From IMG/VR virus record IMGVR_UViG_3300035093_000027: a DNA stretch of 64,000 nt; one strand, given 5' to 3'. Positions within the stretch are counted from its first letter, which is position 1; the number at the start of each line of letters is the position of its first letter. Below, piece by piece: positions 3,514-63,601 of the stretch. This DNA is from an uncultured virus (IMG/VR IMGVR_UViG_3300035093_000027) (Duplodnaviria; Heunggongvirae; Uroviricota; Caudoviricetes). The position numbers and the translations under genes were made by a program. The notes under the pieces were generated by a model. The model saw nothing but the letters and a program-made list of their open reading frames with translations. It was not told the origin of the DNA and searched no databases.

Positions 3514-4116
3514 GTGCTACGATCCATCATCCGCGAGGTCAGAGTGCCCACGCGTTCAGACACCGAGTACCACGAGCGTCGAAGCAAGACTGAACCCGGT
3601 TTGGAGGCTGTACGCCGCCGAGACACGGGTGATCGCGATGCGGAACGCGACCGAGAACGGGACGCGGCCGATCGGCCGACCGTACGGGAGCCCAAGCCGC
3701 AGAGCGGATGGAGCCTCGCGTTCTCGCGGTCGAACCTTCGCGTGAGGATCAGCATCACGATCCTGACGTCGCTCGTTGGCGCCCTCGTCATGGTGTGTAC
3801 GCACCTGTGGACGTACGTGAAGGGGATCAACGTCGACAACGGCGAGCGCGATGCCGCGCTGTCCGAGGTACGTGCGGTGCGAGAGCAACTCGACGAGCAC
3901 GAGGCGCGCATGGCCACGATGGTCGTCGGCTACAAGGCGGATCTCGAGCGCAGCGACAAGGCCTTGCGCATACTCGCGCACGTGCAACTGTTGCAGTGGT
4001 CGTACGTCACGACCGTCGTCGAGGCCGCGCAGAAGCGCAAACCGATCCCTGGCAAGCCACCCGCGCTGGTCGAGGCCGAGACGAAGGCTGCGATCGCGCT
4101 GCGAGATCAGCCGTGA
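3514..4116 (+). CDS. Single-TM coiled-coil membrane protein
   Basis: Hydrophobic ISITILTSLVGALVMV followed by helical region; start uncertain. Confidence 0.55.
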   Translation: MLRSIIREVRVPTRSDTEYHERRSKTEPGLEAVRRRDTGDRDAERDRERDAADRPTVREPKPQSGWSLAFSRSNLRVRISITILTSLVGALVMVCTHLWTYVKGINVDNGERDAALSEVRAVREQLDEHEARMATMVVGYKADLERSDKALRILAHVQLLQWSYVTTVVEAAQKRKPIPGKPPALVEAETKAAIALRDQP

Positions 4117-6110: not shown

Positions 6111-6887
6111 TTACGCCTGCTGGGCGACGAAGGCCTCGACGCGATCGCGCCACGCCTTGGTCTGCGCACCCGTCAGGTCGTGGCCCGAGCTCGTGAAGGC
6201 CTCGAAGCTTACGGGCGCCCCGCGCTCGGCCGCCCACGCCGCATTCTGCTGCGCGGCCGCGAACGGGATGGTCGTGTCGCGCGTGCCGTTGAGCATCACC
6301 GTCGGCGCCATGTTGGGGCGCCACAGACCCGACGGCATGTCGCCGTTGACCGCCACTGCTCCGCCGAGGAGCCGGCGGTGCTGGGTGGCCATCACGAGGG
6401 TCATCTCGCCGCCCGAGCTCGCCCCGGTGATGATGGGCTTGCCCAGCGTCGGTCGGCAGCGCGCGAGCGTCTTGACGAGCCGCGCGAGCCGCTCAGCGTG
6501 CTGCGCCCACGCGTGGGACTCGGCGTTGTCGAAGCCGCCCTCGAGCGTCGCCTTCAGCCCCGCCGGGAACCACATGTACCCGTGGATCGGCGACTCGAAG
6601 CCGCCCTCGGGAACGATGAGGCGTGCGCGTCCGATCCCGTTCATGCCCGACGCGTAGCCCTCGGGCGTCGCGTCGCGTGCGTGCAGGAGCACGACCATCG
6701 GCACGCGCTCCGAGCTCGACGCTCCGCCGCGCATGCGCTCGAGGTAGCGGACGCCCTCCGCGGTGCCTCCGTCCTCGCCGACGCCGCTGCAGTCGGGGCC
6801 GCCGAAGGCGTAGGCGATGCCGGCCGCGCCGAGCCCGGCAGCGGCTGCGCCAGCCGCTGCGACCCACGGCACCCACCTACGCGCCAT
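6111..6887 (-). CDS. Membrane-anchored alpha/beta hydrolase (phospholipase/carboxylesterase-like)
   Basis: N-terminal TM; VVLLH, nucleophile elbow GASSGG, NGTRD (Asp), SGH (His). Confidence 0.8.
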   Translation of the reverse strand: MARRWVPWVAAAGAAAAGLGAAGIAYAFGGPDCSGVGEDGGTAEGVRYLERMRGGASSSERVPMVVLLHARDATPEGYASGMNGIGRARLIVPEGGFESPIHGYMWFPAGLKATLEGGFDNAESHAWAQHAERLARLVKTLARCRPTLGKPIITGASSGGEMTLVMATQHRRLLGGAVAVNGDMPSGLWRPNMAPTVMLNGTRDTTIPFAAAQQNAAWAAERGAPVSFEAFTSSGHDLTGAQTKAWRDRVEAFVAQQA

Positions 6888-7140
6888 GGTCGATCTCCTG
6901 CGCGAGCTCGAAGTCGCTATCACGCAGCTCGAGCGTGTCGTGCCATGCACCGCCGGCCAGCGTGGCGTCGGGGACCCGGATCTCGACGAGGTAGACGCCG
7001 GGCCCGAGGAACGCGACGACGAGGCCGTCCGATCCGGACGGGTGCACGCGGATCGGCTCGGCGGCGCTCTGCAGGTTCGCGGTCGTGCGCACCGTCGCGC
7101 CGACGCGAGCATCGCTCACCGATCGCAGGGCTTCGTTCAT
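6877..7140 (-). CDS. Hypothetical protein
   Basis: Coupled ORF between hydrolase and transglycosylase. Confidence 0.55.
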   Translation of the reverse strand: MNEALRSVSDARVGATVRTTANLQSAAEPIRVHPSGSDGLVVAFLGPGVYLVEIRVPDATLAGGAWHDTLELRDSDFELAQEIDHGA

Positions 7141-7817
7141 CCGAAGAGTCCTCCGCACGCATTCAGCAGTTGCGCGTACCAGCCCATGCGCTCGCGCGTC
7201 GCCTCGACGTACTGTCGCACGTCGGACGACCACGTTCCGTTGGCCCCGCCTGCGCCCGCGTTGTATGCCGCGAACGCCCAGTCGGTGCCCTTGCCGGCGT
7301 CGATGAGCTTGCGCAGCAACGCGGCACCCAGCCACATGGACTGCCGCGGATCGCTGCGATCGACCCAGTCGGCGACGCCCTGCGCTTGGATCTTCGCGAG
7401 ACCCGGGTCGCGGTTGTTGGTCACCGCGGAGAAGGGCCACTTGTTGGCCTCGGCGAGATCCTTGAACACCGCGGCTGCGGTGCCGGGGATCATCTGCGTG
7501 AAGCCAGCGGCCACCGAGTTGTGCGCATCTGGATTCCAGCGCGACTCCGTGTGCACGATCGCGGCGAGCACCTCGGGGTCGAGCCCGAACTGGCTCGCGG
7601 CGTAGCGCGCCAGTGGCATGTACCGCCACGCGCGCTGCACCACCTCGTCGTTGACGTGGGTGCCGAGCGTCTGGCGATACGTATCGATCGAGCACGAGTC
7701 ACCTTCGGCTGGCCACGACGAGCTCGCCAACGCCGTGACCGCGTAGCCCGTCATGCCGATGGCCACTGCTCCGAGCGCAGCTCCTGTCCAGATCATCCAT
7801 GGGTCGAAGCGCTTCAT
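7137..7817 (-). CDS. Lytic transglycosylase (SLT domain) with N-terminal TM
   Basis: AIVHTESRWNPDA, GFTQMIPGTA, AFAAYNAG. Confidence 0.9.
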   Translation of the reverse strand: MKRFDPWMIWTGAALGAVAIGMTGYAVTALASSSWPAEGDSCSIDTYRQTLGTHVNDEVVQRAWRYMPLARYAASQFGLDPEVLAAIVHTESRWNPDAHNSVAAGFTQMIPGTAAAVFKDLAEANKWPFSAVTNNRDPGLAKIQAQGVADWVDRSDPRQSMWLGAALLRKLIDAGKGTDWAFAAYNAGAGGANGTWSSDVRQYVEATRERMGWYAQLLNACGGLFG

Positions 7818-8497
7818 GGGTTCGTCCCCGGACCGGCGGCCACGAGTAGGAGGTACGTGGGGTCGAGCAGCGCCGCAGGCGGAGCGCCGCCGTGCCACGG
7901 GAAGTTCTTGGTGGTGCCCGGCGCGTAGGTCTCGAAGTGCAGCATGTGGCTGTCGCAGTCGCTCTCACTGCCGACCATGCAGCCGATCCGTGCGATCTGT
8001 TGGCCCGCTCGCACTTGCGATCCGATGCCGACGCCGAAGTCGTTCCACGAGCCGGGGCGGATCTCGCCGTAGAGCGCAACGAAGCCGGGATGCGCCACGA
8101 GCATCGCAGACGTCCCGAGATGGAAGCTCTGCGTCGCGATGACGACGCCGTTCGCGATCGCGACGACGGGCTCGCCGTTGACGCCGTAGAGATCGACAGC
8201 CGCGTGGCGCCGTCCGTCTCGAGGCGCTCCAAAGGCACGCGACTGGTTGCCGTGCTTTCCGCCGTTGACGTCGACGTAGCCCACCTGACCGCGACGATCG
8301 TCACGGGTGAGCACGGGCCATACGACGCGACGAGGCACCGGTGCGAAGGGGGCAGGGCTCGGGCGCGGCGGCACGACGCCAGCGGGCAGACGCGGCGTCG
8401 AGAACAGCCCGACGACGCCGTAGCCCACCATGCCGAGCGCGACGGCGCCGAGTCCCGCGGCGGTCCAGATCTGCCACGCCTCGGGCTGGCGCGCCAT
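7814..8497 (-). CDS. M23 family peptidase with N-terminal TM
   Basis: FGAPR..RRHAAVDL, VRAGQQIARIG, HMLHFE. Confidence 0.9.
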   Translation of the reverse strand: MARQPEAWQIWTAAGLGAVALGMVGYGVVGLFSTPRLPAGVVPPRPSPAPFAPVPRRVVWPVLTRDDRRGQVGYVDVNGGKHGNQSRAFGAPRDGRRHAAVDLYGVNGEPVVAIANGVVIATQSFHLGTSAMLVAHPGFVALYGEIRPGSWNDFGVGIGSQVRAGQQIARIGCMVGSESDCDSHMLHFETYAPGTTKNFPWHGGAPPAALLDPTYLLLVAAGPGTNP

Positions 8498-8501
8498 GGC
8501 G

Positions 8502-8720
8502 TCAGCCCTTCTCGATGTACTCGCGGCTGAGGGTCTCGGAGTCGGCGAGCGCGACGATGGCCTTGTCGAGATCGCCGGCCTGCGCGTGGCGGGCCAGCCG
8601 CTCGCGCACCTCCGCGATCGTCTGGGCGCCGCGAGCCGCTTCGCGCACGACGACCGCGACGGTCTCGAGGATCGCCTCGCGGTTGCGGCGGGAGCCCAGG
8701 ATCTTCGACAGCCAACTCAT
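8502..8720 (-). CDS. Small hypothetical protein
   Basis: Coupled ORF with GGAGG RBS. Confidence 0.6.
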   Translation of the reverse strand: MSWLSKILGSRRNREAILETVAVVVREAARGAQTIAEVRERLARHAQAGDLDKAIVALADSETLSREYIEKG

Positions 8721-9160
8721 CGCAGCCCCTCCACGGCGTTCTCGGCCTGCTCGAGCGCGGGCGTGGCCTCGCGGATCTCCTCGAGCGCGGTCGCGATCTC
8801 GTCGTACGCGCGGGCCAGCGCCTCGAAGGCCTCGCGGACCTGGCCGATCTGGTCAGGCGCGAACCCCTTGCGACTCAGGCAGGCCTCGCGGGCTTCCGGC
8901 GTGGATGCGTCGCCGAGCTCGGCGCGGCAGACGTTGATCGCCTCGAGCGTCGCATCGCGGTAGGCGCGGGCGCCCTCGTTGGCGGCAACGTCGACGATGG
9001 CCATCGATTTGTCGGCGTAGCGCGTCGCGTCCGATAGCGTCTGCGCGCATCCGACGAGGGTGACGAGGCCGAAGATCCCGAACCACGTCGCGATCGCCAT
9101 CACGCGCACGTGCTCGTAGTGGCGGATGGCAGCGATGGCGGCTCGGTCGATGGGTGTCAT
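8717..9160 (-). CDS. Putative lipoprotein with helical ectodomain (spanin-like position)
   Basis: Hydrophobic stretch ending LVGC (lipobox-like), next to lysins. Confidence 0.5.
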   Translation of the reverse strand: MTPIDRAAIAAIRHYEHVRVMAIATWFGIFGLVTLVGCAQTLSDATRYADKSMAIVDVAANEGARAYRDATLEAINVCRAELGDASTPEAREACLSRKGFAPDQIGQVREAFEALARAYDEIATALEEIREATPALEQAENAVEGLR

Positions 9161-9759
9161 TGGACCGGCTCGTACGTGTCGCCACCGACGGGCTCACCCG
9201 GTGGCAGCCGCATCGCACGGCTCCACTTGCGCAGGCCATACACCGCAGCGCCTGCGACCGCGACTCCGCCGACCACGAGCGCGACGGTCGTGGCGGCCGG
9301 GTTGCTCTTTCGGCTGGTGTGGCCGCCACCGACGGCGCCGCCCGCCGCCGCTCCGATGGGGCCGAGCATGCCGCCGAGCGCTCCACCGATCGCGCCTCGA
9401 CGATCGCGCTTGTCGGGCGCGCCGATGTGCCCACCGATCGCACCGCCGGCGATCGAGCCGGCCCACGACAGCAGGGGCAGGAGTGCGATCGACGACATCT
9501 CACCAGCGGTGATCTCCGTGGTTCCCGCGTCGGCCTCGTCCATGACCTTCTTCGTGGCCGCGCCGAGTCCCGCCGCTGCGCCGGCGATCCCGCCCAGCAG
9601 CGAGCCGACGCCGGCGCCGATCCCTGTCGTGAGCGCGGAATCTCCGTCCCATGGATTGCGGCGACGACGAGAGCGCCGACGACGTCGGCGACGCGGGTTC
9701 GCTTCGGGTGTAGCCGAGCTCGTCTTCGTGCGCTTCGCGGGGTTCTTCTTCTTCGCCAT
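9157..9759 (-). CDS. NP-motif glycine-zipper membrane protein
   Basis: KKKNP, NPRRRRRRRSRRRRNPW, RKSNP; GxxxG repeats. Confidence 0.75.
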   Translation of the reverse strand: MAKKKNPAKRTKTSSATPEANPRRRRRRRSRRRRNPWDGDSALTTGIGAGVGSLLGGIAGAAAGLGAATKKVMDEADAGTTEITAGEMSSIALLPLLSWAGSIAGGAIGGHIGAPDKRDRRGAIGGALGGMLGPIGAAAGGAVGGGHTSRKSNPAATTVALVVGGVAVAGAAVYGLRKWSRAMRLPPGEPVGGDTYEPVQ

Positions 9760-10307
9760 CACATGCCTTCGACTTCCGCCCATGCGAGCTCGACCAGTTG
9801 CGGCCATGTCAGGTTCATCGCAAGCGTCCACTGCTCGGCTTGCCAGAACGAGTTTGCGGTGTTGTTGCCGATGAGGCCGTCTTCGACGAGCGCGGGTCCG
9901 GGAACCGGCGCGGGCAGTTGGATCCGGCGCACCACGTTAAAGTCGCGCTGGAACTCGCTGACCGCCTGGATGGGCAGCGCGTCGATGACGGTCCACTGCT
10001 CGTTGGTGTGGATCGGGCCGACGTCATAGCCCCACGCATCGAGCTGGATCCCGAACGCATGCTCGTTGGGGTAGCGATCGATGTGCGGCCACGTCTCGAG
10101 ATGCGGGACGTAGTTGAAGTTGATCGTCTCCTTCGGACCAGACCCTGCACCCGCCAGCTTTTTCTGGCGCCAGAACCAGGCCGCCGTGCCGACGAGAGCA
10201 GCACCACCCACGGCCGCCACGATCTTCCGACCGCGGGACCATGGATTTCTCCCGCGCCGCTTGCTTCGAGAGCTACGGCGGCGCGGGTTGGGACGAGCTC
10301 GGCTCAC
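9759..10307 (-). CDS. NP-motif membrane protein with peptidoglycan-binding-like domain
   Basis: NPRRRSSRSKRRGRNPW + TM; AVSEFQRDFN...EDGLIGNNT. Confidence 0.7.
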   Translation of the reverse strand: MSRARPNPRRRSSRSKRRGRNPWSRGRKIVAAVGGAALVGTAAWFWRQKKLAGAGSGPKETINFNYVPHLETWPHIDRYPNEHAFGIQLDAWGYDVGPIHTNEQWTVIDALPIQAVSEFQRDFNVVRRIQLPAPVPGPALVEDGLIGNNTANSFWQAEQWTLAMNLTWPQLVELAWAEVEGM

Positions 10308-10993
10308 GAGACGTTCGAGGCCTCGGCGACGAGCGACTTCCACGTCTGCGTGGCCGACCACAACGACGCGTCGTAGAACGCGCGGGCCGTCCCCGCGCCG
10401 AACAGACCATCGGTCGCGATCGGACCCGAGGTCGACGGCTCCGGCGACAGCCCGAGCTGATCGGCCGCGGCGCGCACGAGGTTGTAGTCCTCCTGGAACT
10501 CGGTCGTCGCATCCATCGCGACCTTGCGCACCATGTTCCAGTCGTCCGCGTTGGTGTCACCGGGGTTGTAGCCGAGCACCTTGAGCTGCGTTCCGAGCTG
10601 CCGGTTGTTCGGCCATCGATCCTTGTGCGGCCACACGAACGGCGACACGGTCTGTCCGATCGCGGCGAGCGCGATGTGGCAGTCGACGTAGTTGCAGGCC
10701 TTCGCTCCGCTGCCGCCTCCGCCGCCGCCACCACCTCCACCACCTCCGCCACCACCACCGGGCGGGGGCGGCGGGGGAAACTGCTTCTTGCGACGGCGAT
10801 ACGCGGCGTAGCCGACTCCGGCTCCGAGCGCGACCGCGGATCCTGCCGCGATCATCACCCACGTAACCGCGGTCGGGTTCATGCGCGCGCGTCCGGGATT
10901 CTTGCGCTTGCGCTTGCCCTTCTTGCTGCGGCCGCCTCGGCGGCCGCGACGGGAGCCGCGGGGGTTGTCTTCGGGAGCCGGGAGCTGCTGCAT
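10304..10993 (-). CDS. NP-motif membrane protein with Pro/Gly linker and peptidoglycan-binding-like domain
   Basis: PEDNP..KRKRKNP + TM; poly-P/poly-G; EFQEDYN...TDGLFGAGT. Confidence 0.7.
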   Translation of the reverse strand: MQQLPAPEDNPRGSRRGRRGGRSKKGKRKRKNPGRARMNPTAVTWVMIAAGSAVALGAGVGYAAYRRRKKQFPPPPPPGGGGGGGGGGGGGGGGSGAKACNYVDCHIALAAIGQTVSPFVWPHKDRWPNNRQLGTQLKVLGYNPGDTNADDWNMVRKVAMDATTEFQEDYNLVRAAADQLGLSPEPSTSGPIATDGLFGAGTARAFYDASLWSATQTWKSLVAEASNVS

Positions 10994-11096: not shown

Positions 11097-12938
11097 CTAC
11101 CAGACCTCGATGTAGATCGCTCCGGGACCACCTGCGCCGCCGTTGCCTCCGGCGACGGCACCGTGCGCAGAGCCTCCACCTGCTCCGCCGCCGCCGTGCG
11201 ATCCACCAGCGCCTCCGACAGCGCCCACGACTGCGGTCGTCGAGCCACCACCACCACCACCACCTGTGCCGCCATAGGCCGATGTCCCCGTCACGCCTGC
11301 TGTGCCTGCTGTGCCTGCAGCACCGCTCGTGCCTGCAGCACCACCGGTACCAGCGGTGTACGTGGCTTGTCCTCCACCCGCAGTCGGCGGTAGTGCAACC
11401 GGAACGTTCGACGAACCTCCACCCGATCCACCGCCTCCGCCACCTTGCAGTGAACTCCCTCCTGCGCCGCGACTAGTGATGCCGTTGTTGCCGCCACCGC
11501 CTGCGCCTCCGTTTTCGGCGAATGCTCCGGGGTTGCTTGAGATTCCTGTTGCACCTGCTCCTCCGGTGTTTCCGACTGCGTTTGCAGTTGGACTGGAGCT
11601 CCCGTTGGGACCTCCTCCCGCGCCCGTGCCCGAGCCGGTGCCCCCCGCACTCTGACCGCCTCCGCCGCCGCCACCGGCGGCGACAGCACTGACGGATTGA
11701 CCACCTTGACCGCCGCCGCCACTGAAAGCGCTTAGGATCACCGGAGATCCGAACGTCGAGTTCCCGCCGGGTGTGCCGGATCCACCGGTCGCAGCGGCAG
11801 CGCCCGCACCACCAGGTCCGCCTGCACCGATGGTGAAGTCGACCGTGCTCGGCAACTCACTCGCGAGATAGAAGCGTTCGGCATGATAGCCACCGCCTCC
11901 GCCACCGGCCCCGATGTTGGCTGTGGCCGCCGCTCCCGATCCACCGCCGCCTCCACCACCTCCCGCGTAGAGCACGACGCGCACGAGCACTGCGCCCGGC
12001 GGGATGTTGTACGTGCTCGAGCCGGGTGTATCGCTGAAGAAGCTCGCGGTCGCATCTTGCCACGCGATCGTTCCGCCGCTTTGGGACACGAGGATCTGTC
12101 GAGGACCCGAAGGCGATACGTCTTGCGGATCTCCGATGGCCGCGGTCGGGTTCATCTTGACGCTCGCCGCCGGCATGTTGGCGAGCTTCGCGTTGTCGAT
12201 CTGATCGTCGCCGACCTGTCCGGTCACGAGCTGCGCGGCGACGAGGTTGCCGGCGACGCGACCGACTACGGTGTTCGTGCCGACCGCCATGTCCTGCGGA
12301 TCTCCGGGCGCCGCGGTCGGGTTGGTCTTGATCGAGTTCGCGGCCATGTCCGCGAGCTGGGTGTTGGTGATCGCGTTCGCGGGCACGTCCCACGTCACGG
12401 TTGCAACGCCGACGGTGACGGCGACCGTCGACGTCGACGTCGCGACGCGATCGTTGGTGAGCGTGGCCGTGGCCTGCCACGTCACATACGGCGCGCCCTG
12501 CAGCGCTGCGACGTCCGCCTGCAGCGCTGCGACCGCAACTTGCAGCGCTGCGACGTCCGCCTGCAGGACGGCGACTTGGCCTTGAAGGACGCCGACGTCA
12601 CCCTGTAGCGCGATCACCTGCGCTTGTAGTAGAGCAACGTCCGCTTGGAGTTGCGCGACTGCGGGGCCGAGTCCTCCGCCTCCACCGGATCCGATCGGCG
12701 CCCATCCGTTGACCGTGCCGGGCTCACCGAAGAACTGGAAGATCCCGAGATCGGAGAAGCGGAAGTCACCGAGTCCCCATCCGATCTCGACCCCTTCGGG
12801 AGATCCCTCGATCGCGCCGCCGATGATTCCTTGGCTAGCGGTCTCCGAGAGAAACCGAAAACGGATCCGATAGACGTCGAGCGCCTCGATGACGTCGGTG
12901 TATCCGGGACTGTAACTTGCTGGTCCTGTGCCGCCCAT
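11097..12938 (-). CDS. Gly-rich fibre/spike protein with heptad coiled coil (paralog 2)
   Basis: LQADVAA heptads, repeated ITN..LADM..NPT..DPQD units, Gly-rich C-terminal domain ending GAIYIEVW. Confidence 0.75.
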   Translation of the reverse strand: MGGTGPASYSPGYTDVIEALDVYRIRFRFLSETASQGIIGGAIEGSPEGVEIGWGLGDFRFSDLGIFQFFGEPGTVNGWAPIGSGGGGGLGPAVAQLQADVALLQAQVIALQGDVGVLQGQVAVLQADVAALQVAVAALQADVAALQGAPYVTWQATATLTNDRVATSTSTVAVTVGVATVTWDVPANAITNTQLADMAANSIKTNPTAAPGDPQDMAVGTNTVVGRVAGNLVAAQLVTGQVGDDQIDNAKLANMPAASVKMNPTAAIGDPQDVSPSGPRQILVSQSGGTIAWQDATASFFSDTPGSSTYNIPPGAVLVRVVLYAGGGGGGGGSGAAATANIGAGGGGGGYHAERFYLASELPSTVDFTIGAGGPGGAGAAAATGGSGTPGGNSTFGSPVILSAFSGGGGQGGQSVSAVAAGGGGGGGQSAGGTGSGTGAGGGPNGSSSPTANAVGNTGGAGATGISSNPGAFAENGGAGGGGNNGITSRGAGGSSLQGGGGGGSGGGSSNVPVALPPTAGGGQATYTAGTGGAAGTSGAAGTAGTAGVTGTSAYGGTGGGGGGGSTTAVVGAVGGAGGSHGGGGAGGGSAHGAVAGGNGGAGGPGAIYIEVW

Positions 12939-15750: not shown

Positions 15751-16275
15751 TCAGCCTCCGCCACCCGTGTAGTTCTCCCATGTGCGCTGAGCGAGCTCGG
15801 ACGCCATCGCGCTGGTCGTCGCTCGGTAGGGTCTGTTGCACAACTGGTCGAGCGCCGCGGCAGCGATGACCACCACGTTCTCGTAGTTGTTCGGATTGTC
15901 CATGCTCATGAGCAGCGGCACGAACACCTGCTCCTGCAACAGCATCCGCTGCTCGAGCGACAGCGCCTGCGGGTTGATGCAGAAGCGCCGCTTGGCTCGG
16001 TTGAACGCGCTGCTGCGATCCTCTCCGCTTGGACCCGAGCCGCCTTGGCCTCCGCCAACCGGCTCGCACTGCTGCGTCGCATCATTCCACAGCATCGGCT
16101 GACCGTTGACGCCCGGCGGACAGAAGGGCTGCGTGCGCTTGGGCTTGCGGCGCATCGCTATAACGGCCGCGGTGACGCCACCGACGGCGGCCACGCTGAC
16201 CAACGCGATACCGATCTTCTTGTTGCGGCTGAGCTTGGGGTTGCGTCGGGGATTGCGTGCCAGTTGGTTCTTCAT
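15751..16275 (-). CDS. NP-motif membrane protein
   Basis: ARNPRRNPK + TM + RRKPK. Confidence 0.7.
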   Translation of the reverse strand: MKNQLARNPRRNPKLSRNKKIGIALVSVAAVGGVTAAVIAMRRKPKRTQPFCPPGVNGQPMLWNDATQQCEPVGGGQGGSGPSGEDRSSAFNRAKRRFCINPQALSLEQRMLLQEQVFVPLLMSMDNPNNYENVVVIAAAALDQLCNRPYRATTSAMASELAQRTWENYTGGGG

Positions 16276-17915: not shown

Positions 17916-17916
17916 G

Positions 17917-18687
17917 TCACCTCGCGCTGTAGGTCTCGCCGGCTTTGCGGATCGAGGAGCCGCGATCGACTACGACCGTCGTCGACGCGGTCTTCGGCAT
18001 CTGCCAGACCTGACCAACTACCACGCCACCCGCGACGAGCGCTGCGCCGCCGAGCGCAGTCCATGCGTAGATCGGTATCTGCCGCTTCGCGCCGCTTGCC
18101 CCGGGATCAACGATCGGTGGCGGAACTTGTCCATACGCCTTGAGCCCCTCGTCGCTCTTCTCGAGCAGGCAAAGCGCGTCGTTGATCACTGCCTGCGATC
18201 GGCCGATCCCTTCGACGGGGTTGGTCGTGAACGAGTTAGGGAGCGCCTTATAGGACGCTGTCATCCGGTTGTTGAGATCGAGCAACGCGTTCCATCGCGG
18301 ATACGTACCTCCGCTCGCTTCGTCCGGGTCAGTGCAGTTGGTCCCACCTGTTGCTTGACACTCGGCAGCCCCGAGCTCGCCGAGCCGGTCATTCGCCATG
18401 TCCGAGATCTGTCGCGCGAGCTCGCGCCACTCCTCGTAGTCGGAGCCGAACGCGACCATCCCGTACGGGTTCTCGAACGTGTACCCGGACACGGTCACGA
18501 CGAGCGATCGGTACTTTGACCCGCATCCCCGCGAGCGCTTCTTTTGCAGATCGCGTAACGCAACGACGCCGGATCCCAAGAGCGTCAGCACGCCCAGGGC
18601 GATCGATGCCTTCGCACCGCCGGCCATCGGATTGCGACGCGTGCGCTTGCGTCGCTTCGCGTTCGATCGCTTCGTCTTGCGTGCCAT
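17917..18687 (-). CDS. NP-motif membrane protein with two TM helices
   Basis: MARKTKRSNAKRRKRTRRNPM + TM; second TM near C-terminus. Confidence 0.7.
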   Translation of the reverse strand: MARKTKRSNAKRRKRTRRNPMAGGAKASIALGVLTLLGSGVVALRDLQKKRSRGCGSKYRSLVVTVSGYTFENPYGMVAFGSDYEEWRELARQISDMANDRLGELGAAECQATGGTNCTDPDEASGGTYPRWNALLDLNNRMTASYKALPNSFTTNPVEGIGRSQAVINDALCLLEKSDEGLKAYGQVPPPIVDPGASGAKRQIPIYAWTALGGAALVAGGVVVGQVWQMPKTASTTVVVDRGSSIRKAGETYSAR

Positions 18688-19403
18688 CACGTTCCTTCCG
18701 ATCCGCCGAGATCTGCCTCGACGACGCAGTCGCGGATGAACTCGATCCGCTGGCCCCGCTGCAGCCCATGGATCTCGGGATGCATGGTCTCGTAGGCGAC
18801 CTCGCCGATCAGAGCCTGGCCGCCTTTGCTCGGCTCGACGACCGTCGCCCAGATGAGCTCGACCGGCGTGTCGTTCTTGGCGACCACGAGTGCAGCGCGA
18901 TCTCCGGGACGCAGCGCCTCCGCGCGAGGATCGGGCGCGGTCGGCAGACCGAGGCTCGCGGGAATGGACAGAAGCCGCGGCCCGCACAGCAGGAGCGCGC
19001 GTCCGCCGAGCGGACGATAGCGATCCCACACGCAGGCCGCGTCGGCCACGACGTGTTGCCCGAGCTCGAAGCCGTGCTTCTCGGTCTGCAGCGGCTTGGG
19101 ATCGGTGTTCGATCCGACTTGGCTGTTGAGCTCGACCTTGATCCCCGAGCCGAGCCCGAACCAGGTGCGCCCGAGCACACGGCCCCACGTCGCCTCGGAG
19201 AACGAGTGATCGACCGCGCCGAGCTGCAGCGCGACGTAGTCGCCCTCCTCGATCTGCTTGGCACCGTACAAGGGCGCCGCCGGGCACAGCAACTCGCCCT
19301 TGCGATCTTCACGCAAGAGCAGGTAGCCAGCGGTCACACCCACCGCGGCCAAGCCGGTGGCGCCAGCGGCGAGGGTCACCTTCCGTCGACGGTCGAGCGG
19401 CAC
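18687..19403 (-). CDS. Membrane-anchored protein with two DUF2314-like repeats
   Basis: EATWGRV..HGFELGQ and ELIWATV..HGLQRGQRIEF. Confidence 0.5.
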   Translation of the reverse strand: MPLDRRRKVTLAAGATGLAAVGVTAGYLLLREDRKGELLCPAAPLYGAKQIEEGDYVALQLGAVDHSFSEATWGRVLGRTWFGLGSGIKVELNSQVGSNTDPKPLQTEKHGFELGQHVVADAACVWDRYRPLGGRALLLCGPRLLSIPASLGLPTAPDPRAEALRPGDRAALVVAKNDTPVELIWATVVEPSKGGQALIGEVAYETMHPEIHGLQRGQRIEFIRDCVVEADLGGSEGT

Positions 19404-53105: not shown

Positions 53106-53594
53106 ATGAGCAAGCGACGACGCAACCAAGAAGAGGCGAAGAGCAACAAGGTCGCCTTCATCCTCGGCGCACTCGGAGCGGGCGCAGGTCTCGGCGTGGG
53201 CTACTGGATCGCGACGACCAAGTCTGCGCGCGACGCCGCCGACAAGCTCACGCAGGGATGGCGGATCCCGCAGCCCGACTTTCGCGTGCACGTCCCCGAG
53301 GAGCCGAACGACTTCCAGCGTCTCGACGACGAGATCTGCGACTGCGCCGAGCCGATCTTGGCCGAGGTGGCCGAGGACGCGGACTTCTCGGTCGTCATCG
53401 ACGAGATCCGGCTGTGCGTTGCGCGGCGTCTGTATCCCGACCTCGAGTGGCCGCCGGTGCCCGGCGATCACCCGAGCGTGGCCCAGCTCTGGAGCGAGGT
53501 CGGGTTCATGGTGCGCCGGGCCATCATCACCGACATGGTGTGCGACTCGCCGATCGCACCACCGCATCCGATTCCGATCCCTGAGGCGACATGA
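53106..53594 (+). CDS. Membrane-anchored protein with RRRN leader
   Basis: MSKRRRNQ..+TM. Confidence 0.7.
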   Translation: MSKRRRNQEEAKSNKVAFILGALGAGAGLGVGYWIATTKSARDAADKLTQGWRIPQPDFRVHVPEEPNDFQRLDDEICDCAEPILAEVAEDADFSVVIDEIRLCVARRLYPDLEWPPVPGDHPSVAQLWSEVGFMVRRAIITDMVCDSPIAPPHPIPIPEAT

Positions 53595-54481
53595 GACGAC
53601 GACCACTCCAGCGGAAGCCGAACCCGTCAGGCGCGACGTGGGCCGTGCTCGCGGCCGGCTCCGCTGCGGCCGTGGGTCTCGGCGCCTACGCGTGGAGGCG
53701 ACGCCGGCCCGGCACGATGCCGACCGAGCCGCCCAAGCCCGTCGAGCCCACCTCGACACCGCGCGAGTGGACGTGGCACCGCGCGACCGATCCGGGCTAC
53801 CCGTGGCTCGAGCCCACGCTGCACGTCGAGAACTATCCGACGCCCGGCATGTTCTTCGACGTCGGCGACGACACAGGCGCCTTCGATCCGAGCCAAGGCT
53901 TCGATGCGCTCGTCACTGCACTGCTTGGATCGGCCCTCGTAATGGCGGGCTGGGATCCGCAGCGTGCGATCGCGGTGGCGAAAGCACAGGGCCAGGATCC
54001 GGACGCGCTGCTCGGACGCACGATGCGACGCGACGTCCGACGCGCGCTCATCATGCCGGGCTCGTGGAACGACAAGATGTTCGGGCAGACCAACGCCAAC
54101 TACGCAGGCGGCACCGATCCGGGCAAGGCGTGCACGGGAGGCTCGACCAACGCGCCGTGCAACGACGGGATCCGCGATCCGAACGCGATGCCGGTGCGCT
54201 ACATGATGAACACCGCCGGCCGCGGCCTGAACTGGCTGCCGCGGCACACCGACGTCATGGATGCGATCGCTGCAGGACAGACGCCGGTACGAGGCACGAC
54301 GATCACCGGTGAGCCGTTCGCGGGGGCGCACTCGCACATGCTCCTGTGGATGCCGGCGTTCGACCTGGGGGCGCTGGCGGAGCCGAGCTCGACCGTGCGG
54401 GTGCTGTCGTCCGGCGGCGATCCGCCGCCCGTGGTGACCGATCTCGGCATCGACATGCACGGGGTCAGCCTGGCGGCGTAG
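53591..54481 (+). CDS. NP-motif membrane-anchored protein
   Basis: RKPNP + TM + RRRR. Confidence 0.7.
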   Translation: MRRRPLQRKPNPSGATWAVLAAGSAAAVGLGAYAWRRRRPGTMPTEPPKPVEPTSTPREWTWHRATDPGYPWLEPTLHVENYPTPGMFFDVGDDTGAFDPSQGFDALVTALLGSALVMAGWDPQRAIAVAKAQGQDPDALLGRTMRRDVRRALIMPGSWNDKMFGQTNANYAGGTDPGKACTGGSTNAPCNDGIRDPNAMPVRYMMNTAGRGLNWLPRHTDVMDAIAAGQTPVRGTTITGEPFAGAHSHMLLWMPAFDLGALAEPSSTVRVLSSGGDPPPVVTDLGIDMHGVSLAA

Positions 54482-56402: not shown

Positions 56403-56581
56403 GCAGAGGATCAACTGCATCGGTACTCGTTGTTGTGGACGACGTAGCGCAAGCGCGGACTGAAAATGGTCTCGCCGTGCGCTCAGAAGACTCGTGATCG
56501 CCTCGAATCCGAGGATCCTCGCGTGTTCGGGCGGACTCGTGACAAACGCGCCGTTTGCTGGTGGGTTCGGGCGCAGCGCCC

Positions 56582-57142
56582 ATGACCCAAGACACCAACC
56601 GCCCACGCCCGCACGTCGTGCCCGATGATCCGCCGCGGAACGAGCGGAAGGCCAAGAACCCGAACTCTGAGACGTGGCGCACCGTCAAGACCGTCGCCCT
56701 GACGACCCTCGTCAGCGCGGCCGTTCTCGGCTCGGCATCATGGGTGTGGAATACGGCGACTCGCCGCGCCACACGAGCGGCGCGTCGTCGGCAGCAGCTC
56801 GAGCAGATCGAGAGCCCATACGCGCAGGCACCCGTCTACGCCGCGGCCGCGCAGCAAGGCTACGGCTGGCCGCAGACCAACATGCGCGACGTCCCCGAGG
56901 CGCTGCGCGACGGTCCGCGGCTGACCAACACGATGCCGCAGGCTGCTCCGCCGCCACAGGTGGTCGTTGCGCCCCCGAGCCCCGAGATCATCGCCGAGAT
57001 CCGCCGACTTGGGCAGCACGTCGACAAGCGCTTCTCGAACGTCGAGCGGCGCTTCGACGCGCTCGAGAACCCCGAGCTCGACGACGACGAGATTGAGGAC
57101 GAGGACGACGACGAGGAGGATGCGCCCCGCAGGCGCAACTGA
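56582..57142 (+). CDS. NP-motif membrane protein with acidic tail
   Basis: RKAKNP + TM; coiled coil; D/E tail. Confidence 0.7.
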   Translation: MTQDTNRPRPHVVPDDPPRNERKAKNPNSETWRTVKTVALTTLVSAAVLGSASWVWNTATRRATRAARRRQQLEQIESPYAQAPVYAAAAQQGYGWPQTNMRDVPEALRDGPRLTNTMPQAAPPPQVVVAPPSPEIIAEIRRLGQHVDKRFSNVERRFDALENPELDDDEIEDEDDDEEDAPRRRN

Positions 57143-57923: not shown

Positions 57924-59538
57924 ATGAAGACGAACAAGATCGCCAAGAACTCCACCGGCGGACTCGCCAAGAACCCGCGCCGTCGCAACGGCTCGCTTGC
58001 GCGCGTGATCACGGGATACGACAAGGCCTTCATGGTCATGGTGGGGGGTGCGCTCGCTGGCGCCGCCCTCGGCTACTTCGTCAAGCCGACGACGACGACC
58101 AAGACCGCGTCGAAGCGAGCTCAAGACGGCTTCGCGATCGGAGGCCTGGCTGTCGGCATTCCCGCGCTGGTCTACGCCGCGGTGAAGTCGTGAAGCACTC
58201 TTCGATCACCCGCCGGCGCAACCCCAGCGCGCTGGCGATCGCTCGGACCGATCCGCTCGGCCGCATCGCGGTGCCCATGATGGCGATCGCGTTGGGTTCG
58301 GCTGCGGGGATCCTCGCGGCCAAGCCGCTGGGGAAAACACCGATGACGGGCGGCCTCGTCGGTGCAGCAGCAGGACTGGCCGCATTTCTGCTGGTCGATC
58401 AAGTCGACCAGCGCCGCTAGGAGAACCCATGCCTCGAGCAGCCGCCATCCAAGGTCCCGTCCACCGTCCGCAGCGCAACCCCAACCCGGCGCCTCCCACG
58501 GTACGCGACGAAGCGGAGAAGAACCCGCGTCGGCGTCGCAAAGGCAAGGGCAAGCGCCGCCGCAACCCGAAGAACCCGAAGATCTCGTACACCACGGGCG
58601 CGATCATCGGGGCGGTACTGGGCTCGATCGGCGTGGCGATCTCGAGCGCTGCGAAGGCGCCGATGCCGGTGATCTCCACGGATGCGGGCGAGTTCGCGGT
58701 CGACACGACCTCGACGACGAAGCGCGCGCTCATGGGAGCGCTGCGAGGCGCGGCCGTCGGCCTCGCGGTGGGCGTCGGCGCGACGATCGTCGCGCGCGAG
58801 CTCAAGGTCGGCGCGGCGGGGCGGATGATGAACCCGACGGGCGTCGGCTCGGCCATCGTGCTCGGATCCTCCATCGCCGCGACCACCCTCGCGGTCGACC
58901 ACGGCATGACGAAGGCATTCGAGGCTGCATGAAGGCGCTGTCCAAGCGCCGACCCAACCTGTCGGCCGTCGCCACCACGACGTACGTCGGCACCGCCGCG
59001 CTCGTCGGCGCGCTGTCGAGCGCGCTCAGCTACACGGTGACCCACAACAAGCGCAGCGCGATCGCCTCGGGCGTCGCCGGCGTCGCCGTGGGCCTCGTGC
59101 TGGTCGCCTCGATGAGGCACCTATGAAACGCCGATCGAAGAAGCGCCGCCGCAACCCGGCGCGCCACACCAACCCGAGCGGTCTCATCACGACGCTGATC
59201 TGCGGAGCCGCAGCCGTCACCGGCATCACGCTGGTGTCGGTGGCGATGCAGTCGCGTCGCAACGCGGCCATCTCGATGTGCGGTCGCCTCGGCGGCCTTC
59301 CGGAGGGCGCATGAAACGACGCAATCCCGGCGCGCTGGCCACGTTCGCGTGGGCCTCGGCTTCAGCGGCGGTCGGCGGCCTCGCGGCCTACTTCACACTG
59401 CGCGAGGTGTACGCTGCGCAGGTCGTCGAGCGGTGCGACGTCATCCGCACGTCGAAGCAGCAGATGTCGATCCAGACCGGCATGCCCACTGCCATGCTGC
59501 CGGCTGTCACCAAGTCGCGCGCGCGCGCCTGGTTCTGA
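57924..59538 (+). CDS. Six small basic-leader membrane proteins (57924-58193, 58190-58420, 58429-58932, 58929-59126, 59123-59314, 59311-59538)
   Basis: KNPRRRN, RRRNP, KRRRNPKNP, KRRPN, KRRRNP, KRRNP, each followed by Gly/Ala-rich TM helices. Confidence 0.75.
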
Positions 59539-59554: not shown

Positions 59555-60274
59555 ATGGAACGCTCGAGCAACCCCCGTCGTCGTCGTGGTCGCAAGTCCC
59601 GGCGGCGCAACCCATGGGATCGTGATGCCGCGGTCGCGCTCGGCGTCGTCGGAGGGGTGCTCGGGATCGCATCCGCCTTCGCGGCGGCCTCCACTGATCG
59701 CGTGTGGACCCGTGCGGTCGTCGCTGGGGCGACAGGCGGCGCCGCGGGTGCGGTGCTCGGTGCTCTGCTGCCCAAGGGCAAGTCGAGCAACCCGCTGCAG
59801 AACCCGATCGGCACCGCAACGGCGGTCATCGCCGGCACAGCGCTCGCGCTCGTGCCCGTGGCGGTCGCGGCCAAGGTGATGCTGCCGAAGTCCGCCGGAC
59901 GCAGTGCGGCGCCGACAGTGCGCGGCAAGATGGGCGCGCACGCCATCGACGTCTACCGCAACGGTCCGACGTGGGCATGGCGGGCGCCGGACGTGAAGAT
60001 CTCGAGCACGAGCAACGAGAGCATGGCAGGCGCTGGCGACACGCGTCGCGACGCCATCGTCAACGCCTACTCCGATCTCGTGATCAAGGATCTCGGACCC
60101 GACGATCGGATCACGCTCGACTTCTATCCCGAATCGTTCCAGATCCAGGTGCTCTCGAGCAACGGATCGTGGACGTGGAACACGACGACTGGGGAAGGCG
60201 GAGTCGCGGACAGCCGCGGCGACGCGCTCACCAAAGCCCTCGACTGGGTCGACGCGCACAGCGAGCTCGACTGA
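59555..60274 (+). CDS. NP-motif multi-TM protein with C-terminal duplicated domain
   Basis: NPRRRRGRKSRRRNPW; W.W...DTRRDA and W.W...DSRGDA repeats. Confidence 0.7.
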   Translation: MERSSNPRRRRGRKSRRRNPWDRDAAVALGVVGGVLGIASAFAAASTDRVWTRAVVAGATGGAAGAVLGALLPKGKSSNPLQNPIGTATAVIAGTALALVPVAVAAKVMLPKSAGRSAAPTVRGKMGAHAIDVYRNGPTWAWRAPDVKISSTSNESMAGAGDTRRDAIVNAYSDLVIKDLGPDDRITLDFYPESFQIQVLSSNGSWTWNTTTGEGGVADSRGDALTKALDWVDAHSELD

Positions 60275-60288: not shown

Positions 60289-61155
60289 ATGACCAAGCAA
60301 CGACTCGCGCTCGCCGGCACGCGCAACCATCCGGCTCCCAATCCCGCTCCCGCTTCCAAGGGCCCCGCGCCCGAGGACAACCCGCGTCGCCGTCGACGCA
60401 AGGGCGGCGGCAAGCGTCGTCGCAAGGCGCGTCGCAACCCCGTGTCGGTCGCCGGCACGCTGGTCGCGGTGGGCCTCGGCGCCGCAGCGGTCGCCGGCGG
60501 CTACGTGGCGTATCGCGGATGGCAGCGAGTCCGCGGCCAGATGAAGATGACGCCCGGTGGCGAGATCGCCGGACTGCTGTCGAAGGGCGCGACCCTGGCC
60601 GACTCGCCGCAGATCGTGTCCGACGTGCGCATGCCCGTCCAGCTCGCGGTGAGCTCGGCCGCGATCCCGAGTGGCTACACGGGCGCGCCGACGCTGCGCG
60701 TGCTGCTGCAGAACGAGGACGGCACGTACACCGCCCGTGACGTCGCGAACGTCGCCTTCGGATTGACGTCAGGCGGCGCCACGGATGCGGTCGTGCTGTC
60801 CGGTCGCATGCCCGACGGATCGACCTTCGAGCAGCGCAACGAGTTGCCCGGCGGCGTCAGCGAGCCCGCGGTCGCGCGCCTGGTCACCGACGTCAAGGGC
60901 ACACTGGCCCGCGACCTCTACGAGCGCATGCTCGCGGAGATCGTGACCAAGAAGGTCGACTGGGAGGATCCGGCGGCTCGCGACGCGTCGATCAAGCACG
61001 TGCTCGGGATCGTCGTACCGCAGGTCGACTACAGCCGCGGCCTCGAGCCGTACTCGTTCGGCGATCTGCCGAGCTCGGTGTGGAGCGCCGCGCAGCTCAT
61101 GGGCGCGCTCGCGCAGCAGTCCATGCTGAACAAGGCGCTGCAGGGCGGCGGCTGA
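60289..61155 (+). CDS. NP-motif membrane-anchored protein
   Basis: AAGGAG RBS; PAPEDNPRRRRRKGGGKRRRKARRNP + TM. Confidence 0.75.
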   Translation: MTKQRLALAGTRNHPAPNPAPASKGPAPEDNPRRRRRKGGGKRRRKARRNPVSVAGTLVAVGLGAAAVAGGYVAYRGWQRVRGQMKMTPGGEIAGLLSKGATLADSPQIVSDVRMPVQLAVSSAAIPSGYTGAPTLRVLLQNEDGTYTARDVANVAFGLTSGGATDAVVLSGRMPDGSTFEQRNELPGGVSEPAVARLVTDVKGTLARDLYERMLAEIVTKKVDWEDPAARDASIKHVLGIVVPQVDYSRGLEPYSFGDLPSSVWSAAQLMGALAQQSMLNKALQGGG

Positions 61156-63292: not shown

Positions 63293-63601
63293 ATGGCACG
63301 GCGGCGCAACCCGATCCCGGTATGGCTGTGGGCCCTGCCGGTGGGCGCCGTCGCCGTAGCGGCCGTCGTCGTCGCGCGGCGCCGCAGCGCTGGCGACGGG
63401 TCGATCTACCTGTACTGGTCCGAGCTGCTGCCGCGCGGCTACAAGGACACGTACCCCGGCTACGTCCCGCACATCCAGCGCGAGGACGGCACCGAGCACG
63501 TCGTGCTCGACGGTCGGCTGGCGGAGGCTGAGGCCGAGCGCGACGCGATCAACGAGATCGAGAGACGCGCAGGGATCCCGCGTCCCGGGAGACCTGCGTG
63601 A
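63293..63601 (+). CDS. NP-motif membrane protein
   Basis: MARRRNPIP + TM + RRR. Confidence 0.7.
   Translation: MARRRNPIPVWLWALPVGAVAVAAVVVARRRSAGDGSIYLYWSELLPRGYKDTYPGYVPHIQREDGTEHVVLDGRLAEAEAERDAINEIERRAGIPRPGRPA

Follow-up and report, generated by a model that had tools for sequence, protein, structure and literature searches.

An arginine-rich arm, Asn-Pro and a membrane helix form a conserved, swappable anchor module in a large uncultured virus-like element

RESULTS

Six cassette genes on two arms

The analyzed stretch of DNA, here called the window, comprises 64 kb of a 130-kb dsDNA contig. A regular-expression search in all six frames revealed six cassettes in which a run of Arg and Lys is bracketed by two Asn-Pro dipeptides (NP-[Arg/Lys run]-NP), three on each strand and with about 50 kb between the groups. 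All six were located inside real genes, directly ahead of a Gly/Ala-rich hydrophobic helix. On the minus strand, gene A (9157..9759, 200 aa) encodes the two-NP arginine arm, a Gly-zipper-like membrane region, a second unit of SRKSNP and a helix, and a short C-terminus. Its cassette (9652-9699; here and below, cassette coordinates run from the codon of the first Asn to that of the last Pro) reads NP-RRRRRRRSRRRR-NP, with W as the next residue and the helix 5 aa on. Gene B (9759..10307, 182 aa, GTG start at 10307) carries the cassette NP-RRRSSRSKRRGR-NP (10242-10289), a single helix and an ectodomain paralogous to that of C; the two proteins are 31.6% identical over 177 aa (E 2.7e-18). Gene C (10304..10993, 229 aa, ATG start at 10993) starts with a PAPEDNP leader, followed by the cassette NP-RGSRRGRRGGRSKKGKRKRK-NP (10895-10966), a third NP 7 aa later at the helix, a poly-Pro/poly-Gly linker and the ectodomain.

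The remaining three genes are on the plus strand. Gene D (58429..58932, 167 aa) has three hydrophobic segments and an N-terminal tail with five NP, including those of the cassette NP-RRRRKGKGKRRR-NP (58522-58569), after which KNP follows. Gene E (59555..60274, 239 aa) contains the cassette NP-RRRRGRKSRRR-NP (59570-59614) 5 aa from its start, three helices, of which the third is preceded by a conserved internal KGKSSNPLQNP, and a C-terminal domain. Gene F (60289..61155, 288 aa) combines a PAPEDNP leader, the cassette NP-RRRRRKGGGKRRRKARR-NP (60379-60441), one helix and a 200-aa ectodomain. The six frames have a GC3 of 0.78-0.89 versus 0.57-0.75 in overlapping rival ORFs. Genes C, B and A are coupled by a GTGA overlap (C stop/B start) and a TGATG overlap (B stop/A start), and AGGAG-like sites were found upstream of the starts of D, E and F. 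The initial annotation had placed the peptides at 9759, 10307, 10993, 58429, 59555 and 60289. The peptides are real, but these numbers are the start codons of the genes and not the positions of the cassettes.

As a control, the search was repeated with altered sequences. Six cassette loci in the real window compare with none in the reversed sequence and with a mean of 0.03 (maximum 1) in 200 triplet shuffles. All six peptide strings were found, and the claim that conserved cassettes exist on both arms was confirmed. Among the 69 window proteins (17,314 residues), at least two Arg/Lys residues directly before NP were seen 16 times; 2000 residue shuffles gave 0.47 on average and never more than 4. 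No other dipeptide is as over-represented in these proteins as NP, which occurs 84 times with 31.4 expected (2.67x), whereas the control dipeptide PN occurred 32 times (31.4 expected). Between the two NP, Arg and Lys account for 65-92% of the residues across the six cassettes. The NP codon pairs are not fixed (AAC or AAT followed by CCN), and the comparison of the leaders at both levels proposed in the initial annotation gave a signal in the amino acids and no extra nucleotide identity in common. The signal is therefore at the protein level, and a DNA-level motif was rejected as an explanation.

Pfam, PHROGs and NCBIfam gave no recognized family for the module proteins. Gene A was compared with the glycine-zipper profiles Rick_17kDa_Anti and Gly-zipper_YMGG. 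The match to Pfam Rick_17kDa_Anti (E 0.0071, 16.7 bits) lies below the cut-off of 24.2, and many weaker HMMER representative matches cover only query residues ~90-160. The ectodomains of B and C gave no Pfam match to PG_binding_1 at E up to 5 and nothing relevant in a profile search of PDB sequences. They resemble a region of the protein encoded at 48262-50193 (BLAST, E 1.8e-4 and 6.5e-5), which is itself sub-threshold for PG_binding_1 (17.9 bits versus 23). A far sub-threshold match of gene C to Pfam TT_ORF1 (E 0.24) is compositional and reflects the arginine-rich sequence. In the AlphaFold2 model of F, the ectodomain (residues 90-288) is confident (pLDDT ~90), and residues 1-72, including the helix, have a pLDDT below 50, with no confident helix start at NP. 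The ectodomain fold was not matched (Foldseek best E 0.042; VIA-align best Z 5.4), a result that is evidence neither for a novel fold nor for any function.

A wider module of basic tail, Asn-Pro and helix

At least 14 window proteins contain a basic tail, Asn-Pro and a membrane helix in this order, and the cassettes represent the long-armed version of this wider module. In 14 window proteins with a basic N-terminal tail, the last NP lies at most 9 aa before the first hydrophobic segment, and the end of each of the six cassettes falls within a span from 2 residues inside this segment to 5 residues ahead of it. The segments are 18-26 aa long and moderately hydrophobic, with a best 17-residue Kyte-Doolittle window of 1.4-2.2. 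Two further members are on the minus strand. The single-helix protein at 15751..16275 has NPRRNP ahead of the helix, and its homologue in L001 has RRRRRNL without NP. The protein at 18400..18690 has a basic tail (11 Arg/Lys in 21 aa), RRNP and a helix, and its L001 homologue retains RRRRRRRGRANP. On the plus strand, MRRRPLQRKPNP and a helix were found in a 296-aa protein (53591..54481), KAKNP and a helix in a 195-aa protein (56555..57142), and MARRRNP and a helix in a 102-aa protein (63293..63601). Two small proteins of 89 and 76 aa (57924..58420) have KNPRRR or RRRNP tails ahead of their helices, and another two of 63 and 86 aa (59123..59538) have a basic tail, NP and a helix; the 86-aa protein probably starts at an internal MKRRNP.

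The module is conserved and swapped among relatives

Orthologues were found for A, E and F. Their cassettes are retained, but both the length and the sequence of the arginine run change among them. In the alignment of 16 A-family sequences, N35 and P36 of the helix-proximal NP are invariant (16/16, down to 36% identity), and N153 and P154 of the second unit are at least 90% conserved. The arm sequence is not conserved, and arm length lies between ~5 and ~35 aa. The distal NP was found only in long-armed members and is missing in 8/16, where the short arms begin at Met; the expectation that all homologues carry a second NP thus failed. In the F family, PE[DA]NP, a stretch of 17-18 basic/Gly residues and RRNP are retained in all four orthologues whose N-terminus is complete. 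At least two NP surround the arm in 5/6 complete E-family members; P0028 and P0029 have three, and P0031 has no helix-proximal NP. P0060 and P0058 retain NP without an arginine arm. NP also stands ahead of internal helices (SRKSNP in the A family, KG[KR]S[SA]NPLxNP in the E family), and P0088 has tandem cassettes.

A-type anchors were found on F-type ectodomains in P0022, P0038, P0043 and P0082. P0036 and P0037 have another C-terminal domain in common; the domains of P0039 and P0040 differ from these and from each other. The same anchor on unrelated C-terminal domains therefore supports the proposal that the leader is shuffled between ectodomains. The cassette-bearing leader is a genuine anchor module, both conserved and swappable. 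For a 172-kb relative, 14.8 kb were covered, and the region syntenic with the cassette genes lies past the contig end.

Charge distribution and predicted topology

Topology was assessed by a Kyte-Doolittle scan and a charge count. The N-terminal tails of the six cassette proteins have a net charge of +8 to +16, and the 15 aa that follow the helix one of -3 to +5. This bias predicts that the arms are on the cytoplasmic side, as the initial annotation had anticipated for a DNA-binding cassette. The flank after the helix has a charge of +3 to +5 in B, C and F. Such basic flanks are unusual for a translocated segment and make the topology less certain.

Database and literature searches

No capsid, portal, terminase or packaging ATPase and no processing protease was recognized in 64 kb of the 130-kb contig (Pfam, PHROGs, NCBIfam). 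The only peptidase matches in these 64 kb were an M23 peptidase and a weak alpha/beta-hydrolase match. Known phages gave no megablast match to 45 kb of the window, and a phage collection gave no tblastn match with two large window proteins. Scans of IMG/VR with gene C, with a 547-aa neighbor protein (poor model, mean pLDDT 55) and with its 16-member alignment returned no relatives. Two IMG/VR contigs of 47-48% G+C matched by an A-family subgroup alignment were judged unrelated; their other ORFs are tailed-phage-like, and the match lies within an ORF of at least 830 aa (1023 aa in L252). Scans of species genomes with two alignments found nothing, so no host was assigned. The DUF927 primase-helicase matches phages and plasmids of unrelated hosts only distantly (21-30% identity) and so gives no taxonomic hint. 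The ESM Atlas yielded no usable family for the proteins at 61558-63291 and 50151-51065, and a PDB sequence search with five candidate structural proteins from the window and from G001, an unrelated 39-kb viral contig with similar G+C, yielded nothing at E <0.1. Literature searches found no description of an Asn-Pro, arginine-rich and transmembrane module in a phage, and nothing relevant on arginine-rich membrane proteins and DNA in internal-membrane bacteriophages.

DISCUSSION

The proteins described here have a lineage-specific order of arginine arm, Asn-Pro pair, Gly/Ala-rich transmembrane helix and variable C-terminal domain. The architecture, conservation, modular reuse and charge asymmetry are plain from the data. 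As their explanation we tentatively favor an uncleaved type II anchor, whose arginine arm would bind a polyanion, probably DNA, and whose NP would be the joint at which the helix starts. The arm would stay in the cytoplasm (N-in, C-out), with the variable domain on the other side. Uncleaved type II signal-anchors have a positively charged N-terminal tail and one hydrophobic helix and follow the positive-inside rule. The window proteins are alike in that their tails are positive, a hydrophobic helix follows and more charge lies before the helix than after it. They differ in that the tails carry +8 to +16 instead of a few charges and are closed by a near-invariant Asn-Pro, and in that one unit heads no fewer than 14 proteins of the element and has moved from one ectodomain to another.

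The helix-adjacent NP may serve as a structural joint, with Asn as the helix N-cap and Pro as the first helix residue. It would terminate the arm and begin the helix, and the distal NP would likewise mark the start of a long arm. In helix N-capping, Asx is found at the N-cap and Pro at N1. This agrees with the position of NP in 14 window proteins, no more than 9 residues ahead of the hydrophobic helix, and also with NP before internal helices. In contrast to common capping, the window uses NP and nearly excludes the commoner Ser/Thr/Asp-Pro caps, and the model of F lacks a confident helix start. In G001, RRRRNP also occurs after a membrane segment and in soluble arginine-rich proteins, and NP is therefore not only a transmembrane-helix cap.

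Remaining attached, the arm would bind its polyanion electrostatically. Its most likely partner would be the DNA of the element, with anionic lipid head groups as the alternative, and with at least 14 such proteins, DNA would be held at a membrane while the element is assembled or transferred. Capsid proteins of small RNA and ssDNA viruses have disordered, arginine-rich N-terminal arms that stay attached and neutralize genome charge; these arms sit on jelly-roll proteins and face the genome. The arms described here may likewise be disordered and stay on the protein, but they are on membrane anchors and the element is a 130-kb dsDNA contig. SPK(K/R) repeats have the geometry of a turn-forming small residue and Pro. 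They occur in the N-terminal tails of sperm-specific histone H2B (PMC9903204). The likeness consists of a small residue and Pro followed by at least two basic residues, repeated in an N-terminal tail, and by analogy NPRR could form an Asx-Pro turn equivalent to SPK(K/R). Unlike H2B, the window proteins have Asn instead of Ser, far longer Arg runs and a membrane anchor; the DNA-packing role belongs to H2B.

A less likely, though still serious, explanation is that the arm is purely topogenic. It would be a strong positive-inside determinant that forces N-in/C-out insertion of weakly hydrophobic Gly/Ala-rich helices, with NP as the helix start and no nucleic-acid partner. Architecture and charge asymmetry fit it as they fit the favored explanation, and both the moderate hydrophobicity of the helices (1.4-2.2) and the free length of the arm (~5 to ~35 aa among homologues, some being armless) are consistent with it. 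Signal-anchor helices are usually adjoined by few positive charges, whereas the arms are 12-33 residues long with up to +16. Tandem cassettes in P0088 and G001 and NP-studded arginine tracts in soluble G001 proteins also argue against it.

It is improbable that the basic run and NP are a sorting or export tag read by a machine of the host or the element, by Tat-like export or by sorting into a virion membrane or vesicle. Such a tag would explain why at least 14 otherwise unrelated window proteins are headed by the same short unit and why the module recurs in G001. Tat signals have the consensus S/T-R-R-x-F-L-K before a hydrophobic region. Arg-Arg, the Gly/Ala-rich segment (1.4-2.2) and a basic flank (+3 to +5 in B, C and F) resemble their overall layout, but the cassette leaders lack the consensus, the residues after the Arg pair being N-P-(W/V/M/G/I/S/A/K) and not x-F-L-K. 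No sorting enzyme was recognized within the 64 kb. Among the IMG/VR matches listed, a hydrophobic segment followed the DNA pattern for RRRRR-NP in 2/120 loci versus 3/119 for the RRRRR-PN control; it is therefore not a widespread signal, and a general phage signal was rejected.

The initial annotation had proposed that DNA is tethered to the virion membrane and that cuts at both NP, by a viral protease or by Asn-Pro self-cleavage, free protamine-like peptides of 10-20 aa. We consider this very improbable. The adenovirus proteins pVII and pre-mu are made as soluble precursors, which a cysteine protease encoded by the virus trims at a defined consensus. The window resembles them in having arginine-rich tracts in proteins of a DNA element with conserved short flanking motifs, and by composition (65-92% Arg/Lys) these tracts, arginine-rich like protamines, would be able to neutralize DNA. 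Here, however, the tracts are fused to membrane helices and flanked by NP, and no such protease was found in the 64 kb. Asn-Pro bonds are self-cleavage sites in RsgI anti-sigma factors, and reovirus/aquareovirus mu1 and VP5 are also named in that paper (PMC10328401); FlhB is reported as a further Asn-Pro self-cleaving protein (PMC3708937). As in these membrane or virion proteins, Asn-Pro is conserved in the window (A family 16/16; F family 4/4), and both NP are kept in long-armed orthologues (F 4/4, E 5/6). In contrast to them, the window proteins have two to five NP per tail, and these would lie in a low-confidence and probably disordered region; residues 1-72 of F (pLDDT <50) are not modeled as a folded domain, which argues against a folded scaffold around the NP sites.

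Conservation is likewise difficult to reconcile with cleavage. The helix-proximal NP is invariant where no arm exists (P0060, P0058), a single NP is present in 8/16 A-family members, and NP stands before internal helices, where cutting would split the membrane domain. From the sequences, a structural joint fits better than a release site. Because the arm between two NP ranges from ~6 to 33 residues, cleavage would not give a conserved, defined peptide product. Since no protease, evidence of cleavage or capsid gene was found in the 64 kb, released protamine-like peptides and a virion membrane are left without support. With no capsid or packaging genes visible in the window, the membrane could be that of the host and not of a virion. 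It is equally doubtful that these are large (130-170 kb), membrane-containing bacterial viruses without a nucleoprotein, with a genome held and part-neutralized by a dozen-plus arginine arms and with NP cleaved, either by Asn-Pro lyase chemistry or by an unseen protease, to free protamine-like peptides at maturation.

Internal-membrane phages such as PRD1 and PM2 have small integral membrane proteins. The window is similar in that many small single-pass proteins are encoded beside cell-wall hydrolases, but it has no sequence relation to these phages, no capsid or packaging genes were seen and the contig is ~10x larger. In a PRD1-type particle, the assembly route would turn the cytoplasmic face of the membrane toward the capsid and not the DNA. 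In a review (PMC6356626), the terms "positively charged", "basic", "condens" and "nucleoprotein" do not occur.

Least likely of all, the element would be no virus but a large plasmid or conjugative element with a membrane apparatus for DNA translocation or spread, its arms binding DNA in the cytoplasm and its ectodomains acting in the cell wall: the lack of a recognized capsid, portal or terminase within the 64 kb, the failure of the queries used to find the lineage in IMG/VR or the phage collection, the presence of a DUF927 primase-helicase and of a Doc/MazE-like pair, both common on plasmids, and the sub-threshold PG_binding_1 resemblance of the B and C ectodomains point to it, while FtsK/TraB-like, VirB4-like and relaxase proteins were not found in the window, two Gly_rich_2 fiber-like proteins match phage minor-tail PHROGs, the M23 peptidase matches endolysin PHROGs and the arguments from gene absence cover half of the contig.

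If the arms of these anchors bind DNA, they would pack or tether a large dsDNA genome in a way not described for cultured bacterial viruses, with charge neutralization spread over many membrane anchors and not one core protein. If they are only topogenic, they would exemplify the positive-inside rule in an extreme but otherwise ordinary form. In practice, the module is a marker for a lineage of uncultivated elements that standard libraries miss, and mutation of the near-invariant Asn-Pro joint offers a simple way to probe insertion, cleavage and DNA binding.

Six coding cassettes above chance

A six-frame regular expression found exactly six cassettes in the window in which a run of Arg and Lys is bracketed by two Asn-Pro (NP) sites. 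The minus strand carries three of them at 9.6-11.0 kb, and the plus strand the other three at 58.5-60.4 kb. The positions named in the initial annotation refer to the start codon of each gene that carries a cassette: A (9157..9759), B (9759..10307) and C (10304..10993) on the minus strand, and D (58429..58932), E (59555..60274) and F (60289..61155) on the plus strand. The frames of these genes are coding, because GC3 is 0.78-0.89 compared with 0.57-0.75 in overlapping rival ORFs, GTGA and TGATG overlaps couple C, B and A, AGGAG-like sites lie upstream of D, E and F, and orthologues were found for A, E and F, while B and C are paralogues.

The cassettes are not a chance occurrence. The reversed sequence contained no such locus, and 200 triplet shuffles gave a mean of 0.03 (maximum 1). 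Dipeptides were counted in 69 window proteins from a crude, hand-corrected GC3-based gene call, a few of which may be wrong. NP was the most over-represented dipeptide in this set (84 observed, 31.4 expected), with PN at expectation (32 vs 31.4). [RK]{2,}NP occurred 16 times, compared with 0.47 on average and at most 4 across 2000 shuffles, and NP was the commonest dipeptide following a basic run (16 of 279; the runner-up reached 6). The first 60 residues of the proteins, 24% of all residues, hold 39 of the 84 NP. The observation of the cassettes is thereby confirmed, and it is robust.

The initial annotation had the leaders recurring in both genome arms. This held for a motif at the protein level; the nucleotide alignment was no better than the amino acids demand. 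NP codons vary among cassettes, and synonymous sites differ between the PAPEDNP leaders of C and F, which points to old or convergent copies rather than recent recombination. CGT makes up 18 of the 51 Arg codons in the cassettes (35%), compared with 14% across the genes of the window. For the most part it alternates with CGC (e.g. 9652-9699, 59570-59614), perhaps an avoidance of long perfect repeats.

Conservation of the NP sites and the arm

Four F-family proteins have a complete N-terminus: that of the window itself, P0018, P0019 and P0024, a longer gene call that clusters with P0021 at 90% identity. All four read PE[DA]NP, then 17-18 Arg/Lys/Gly residues, then RRNP. The gene calls of P0020 and P0021 begin at the helix and are uninformative on the arm, as we term the basic run. 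Two or three NP surround the arm in five of six complete E-family members, P0031 being without the helix-proximal NP; two additional members come from truncated gene calls. Ahead of helix 3, seven of the eight carry an internal KG[KR]S[SA]NPLxNP, and the eighth (P0033) begins past that region.

A search with HMMER of 1.84 billion representatives gave 63 A-family matches at E <=0.001, 15 of them at <=1e-10. Sixteen were aligned, the window's own gene A (P0034) and 15 others. Helix-proximal N35 and P36 are invariant in this alignment and conservation is at least 90% for the second unit's NP, with arm length running from ~5 to ~35 residues. Eight of the 16 have the shortest type of arm, beginning at Met with one NP. 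Across all 63 matches, [RK]{2,}N(N)P is present in 44 and, by a loose rule, the two-NP bracket in 16. P0088 carries two tandem cassettes; P0060 and P0058 retain NP without an arm.

Cassettes precede hydrophobic segments and variable ectodomains

Every cassette runs up to a Gly/Ala-rich hydrophobic segment, its end lying anywhere from 2 residues within that segment to 5 residues ahead of it. In 14 window proteins with a basic N-tail the last NP lies at most 9 aa before the hydrophobic segment, and in one more at 14 aa. In seven further proteins an N-terminal hydrophobic segment comes without NP (3514-4116, 6111-7112, 7814-8497, 8717-9160, 18687-19403, 38220-39296 and 53028-53594). Among these, the minus-strand alpha/beta-hydrolase at 6111-7112, whose start is uncertain, has an RRRS-rich tail and hydrophobic helix ahead of it and weak Peptidase_S9, Abhydrolase_2, DLH and PHA-depolymerase matches.

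The initial annotation also proposed that the leader is shuffled onto unrelated ectodomains, and this was borne out. An A-type anchor is fused to an F-type ectodomain in P0022, P0038, P0043 and P0082; other C-terminal domains follow it in P0036 and P0037, which have one in common, and in P0039 and P0040. The window's 577-aa protein (61558-63291, plus strand) has an A-type Gly-zipper membrane unit at its C-terminus, ending in KRKNP and a short basic helix. Six or more NP seams follow basic or acidic residues in this protein, whose own arm reads RRRN-G in place of RRRNP.

From only nine sequences, the F ectodomain (residues 90-288) was modelled with high confidence (pLDDT ~90), while residues 1-72 scored <50. 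No convincing fold match was found in the PDB (Foldseek best E 0.042, VIA-align best Z 5.4), and the model may represent an undescribed fold. Both B and C have ectodomains similar to residues ~160-230 of a plus-strand 643-aa Cys-rich protein (48262-50193). This protein has several NP seams, a duplicated 'SSGASRRRSSGA[TS]RN' segment and two near-identical 'DVLSGR.QNQ.HHG..G.DFGTV.RR' segments. Since its PG_binding_1 match is sub-threshold and direct searches with the B and C ectodomains returned nothing, peptidoglycan binding by them is only a lead.

Genome setting and spread beyond the lineage

The window, 64 kb long, comes from a 130,310-bp contig with ~66% G+C. Neither megablast nor tblastn queries from two large proteins found anything similar in the phage collection. 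Searches of Pfam, PHROGs and NCBIfam identified mid-window replication and modification genes (two helicases, a Toprim primase, a DUF927 primase-helicase and a C5 methylase), an M23 peptidase, and a Doc (Fic/DOC) toxin gene with a MazE-like antitoxin gene (55735-56606, minus strand) within a plus-strand membrane-protein gene block. Two Gly_rich_2 fibre-like proteins match phage minor-tail PHROGs. They are minus-strand tandem paralogues (11097-12938 and 12974-14800; 62.9% identity over 464 aa) with a coiled-coil-like LQ(A/G)xV heptad region. The same three databases recognised no capsid, portal, terminase or packaging ATPase in the window. Therefore, we speak of a virus-like element, and the virion membrane to which the initial annotation had assigned the cassettes is treated as unproven.

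Fifteen relatives of a neighbouring 547-aa protein (16272-17915, minus strand) were found at 43-79% identity; the contigs they lie on reach 172 kb. The protein combines hydrophobic N-terminal helices, invariant Cys and His residues and a hydrophobic C-terminal helix with an R-rich end behind it; it gave no family match and a poor structure model (mean pLDDT 55). The 14.8-kb end of one relative's contig (L001) is syntenic with window 12-19 kb and carries a homologue of the tandem paralogues after the same neighbours. One neighbour there retains RRRRRRRGRANP ahead of its helix; another reads RRRRRNL, not NP.

An IMG/VR scan for NP-R4-x(0-10)-RR-NP in CGN/AAC codons returned one locus, in a complete 39,045-bp viral contig (G001) with terminal repeats and 69.6% G+C. 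Two tandem NP-polyArg(Tyr)-NP cassettes (17380-18327, plus strand) stand there ahead of a hydrophobic region, at the head of a presumed structural block. The same contig has RRRRNP downstream of a membrane segment and, at 29.2-31.6 and 34.3-35.3 kb, encodes soluble proteins rich in arginine and studded with NP. G001 and the window have no common genes save an HNH-like match. No tailed-phage structural gene and no known capsid or terminase family was recognised in G001. It also encodes an esterase/lipase-like protein. We rejected the cassette format as a general signal: among the IMG/VR matches listed, a hydrophobic segment came next in 2 of 120 RRRRR-NP loci, compared with 3 of 119 for the RRRRR-PN control.

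A proposed uncleaved anchor with a polyanion-binding arm

The net charge of the six cassette tails is +8 to +16, compared with -3 to +5 in the 15 residues past the helix. By the positive-inside rule this asymmetry argues for N-in, and the predicted cytoplasmic orientation of the arm is supported, although the C-side flanks of several helices are unusually basic, which makes the topology less secure. In the most economical reading, the protein would be an uncleaved type II anchor whose arm stays in the cytoplasm while the variable domain is exported. NP would then be the junction between arm and helix, which fits three findings: NP is invariant whether or not an arm is present, it also stands before internal helices, and arm length drifts freely.

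We tentatively favour an anchor of this kind whose arm binds a polyanion, with DNA as the first candidate. The main rival, that the arm is purely topogenic, is somewhat less probable. An arm charge that reaches +16, and in some cases is doubled, exceeds what topology ought to demand, and this excess favours a polyanion partner. As a rough estimate, the N-tails of the 14 proteins would sum to a net charge of ~+130, compared with 260,000 negative charges on a 130-kb duplex. Hundreds of copies per protein would thus offset no more than a modest part of the genome's charge, making tethering more plausible than full condensation. The NPRR motif might mimic SPK(K/R), reported as a DNA-binding unit in sperm histone tails (PMC9903204); the likeness would lie in the geometry of the turn. 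Peptide release by cleavage at NP, as originally suggested, is very improbable: RsgI gives a chemical precedent at Asn-Pro (PMC10328401), but within a folded beta-turn, whereas the window's NP are without folded context, no protease for it was found in the window and product length is not conserved.

Taken together, the initial interpretation is partly supported: the analysis backs the module, its shuffling and its orientation, but neither peptide release nor a virion membrane. The module was not recognised by Pfam, PHROGs or NCBIfam, nor described in the literature searched, and it is a variation on signal-anchor and arginine-arm themes.
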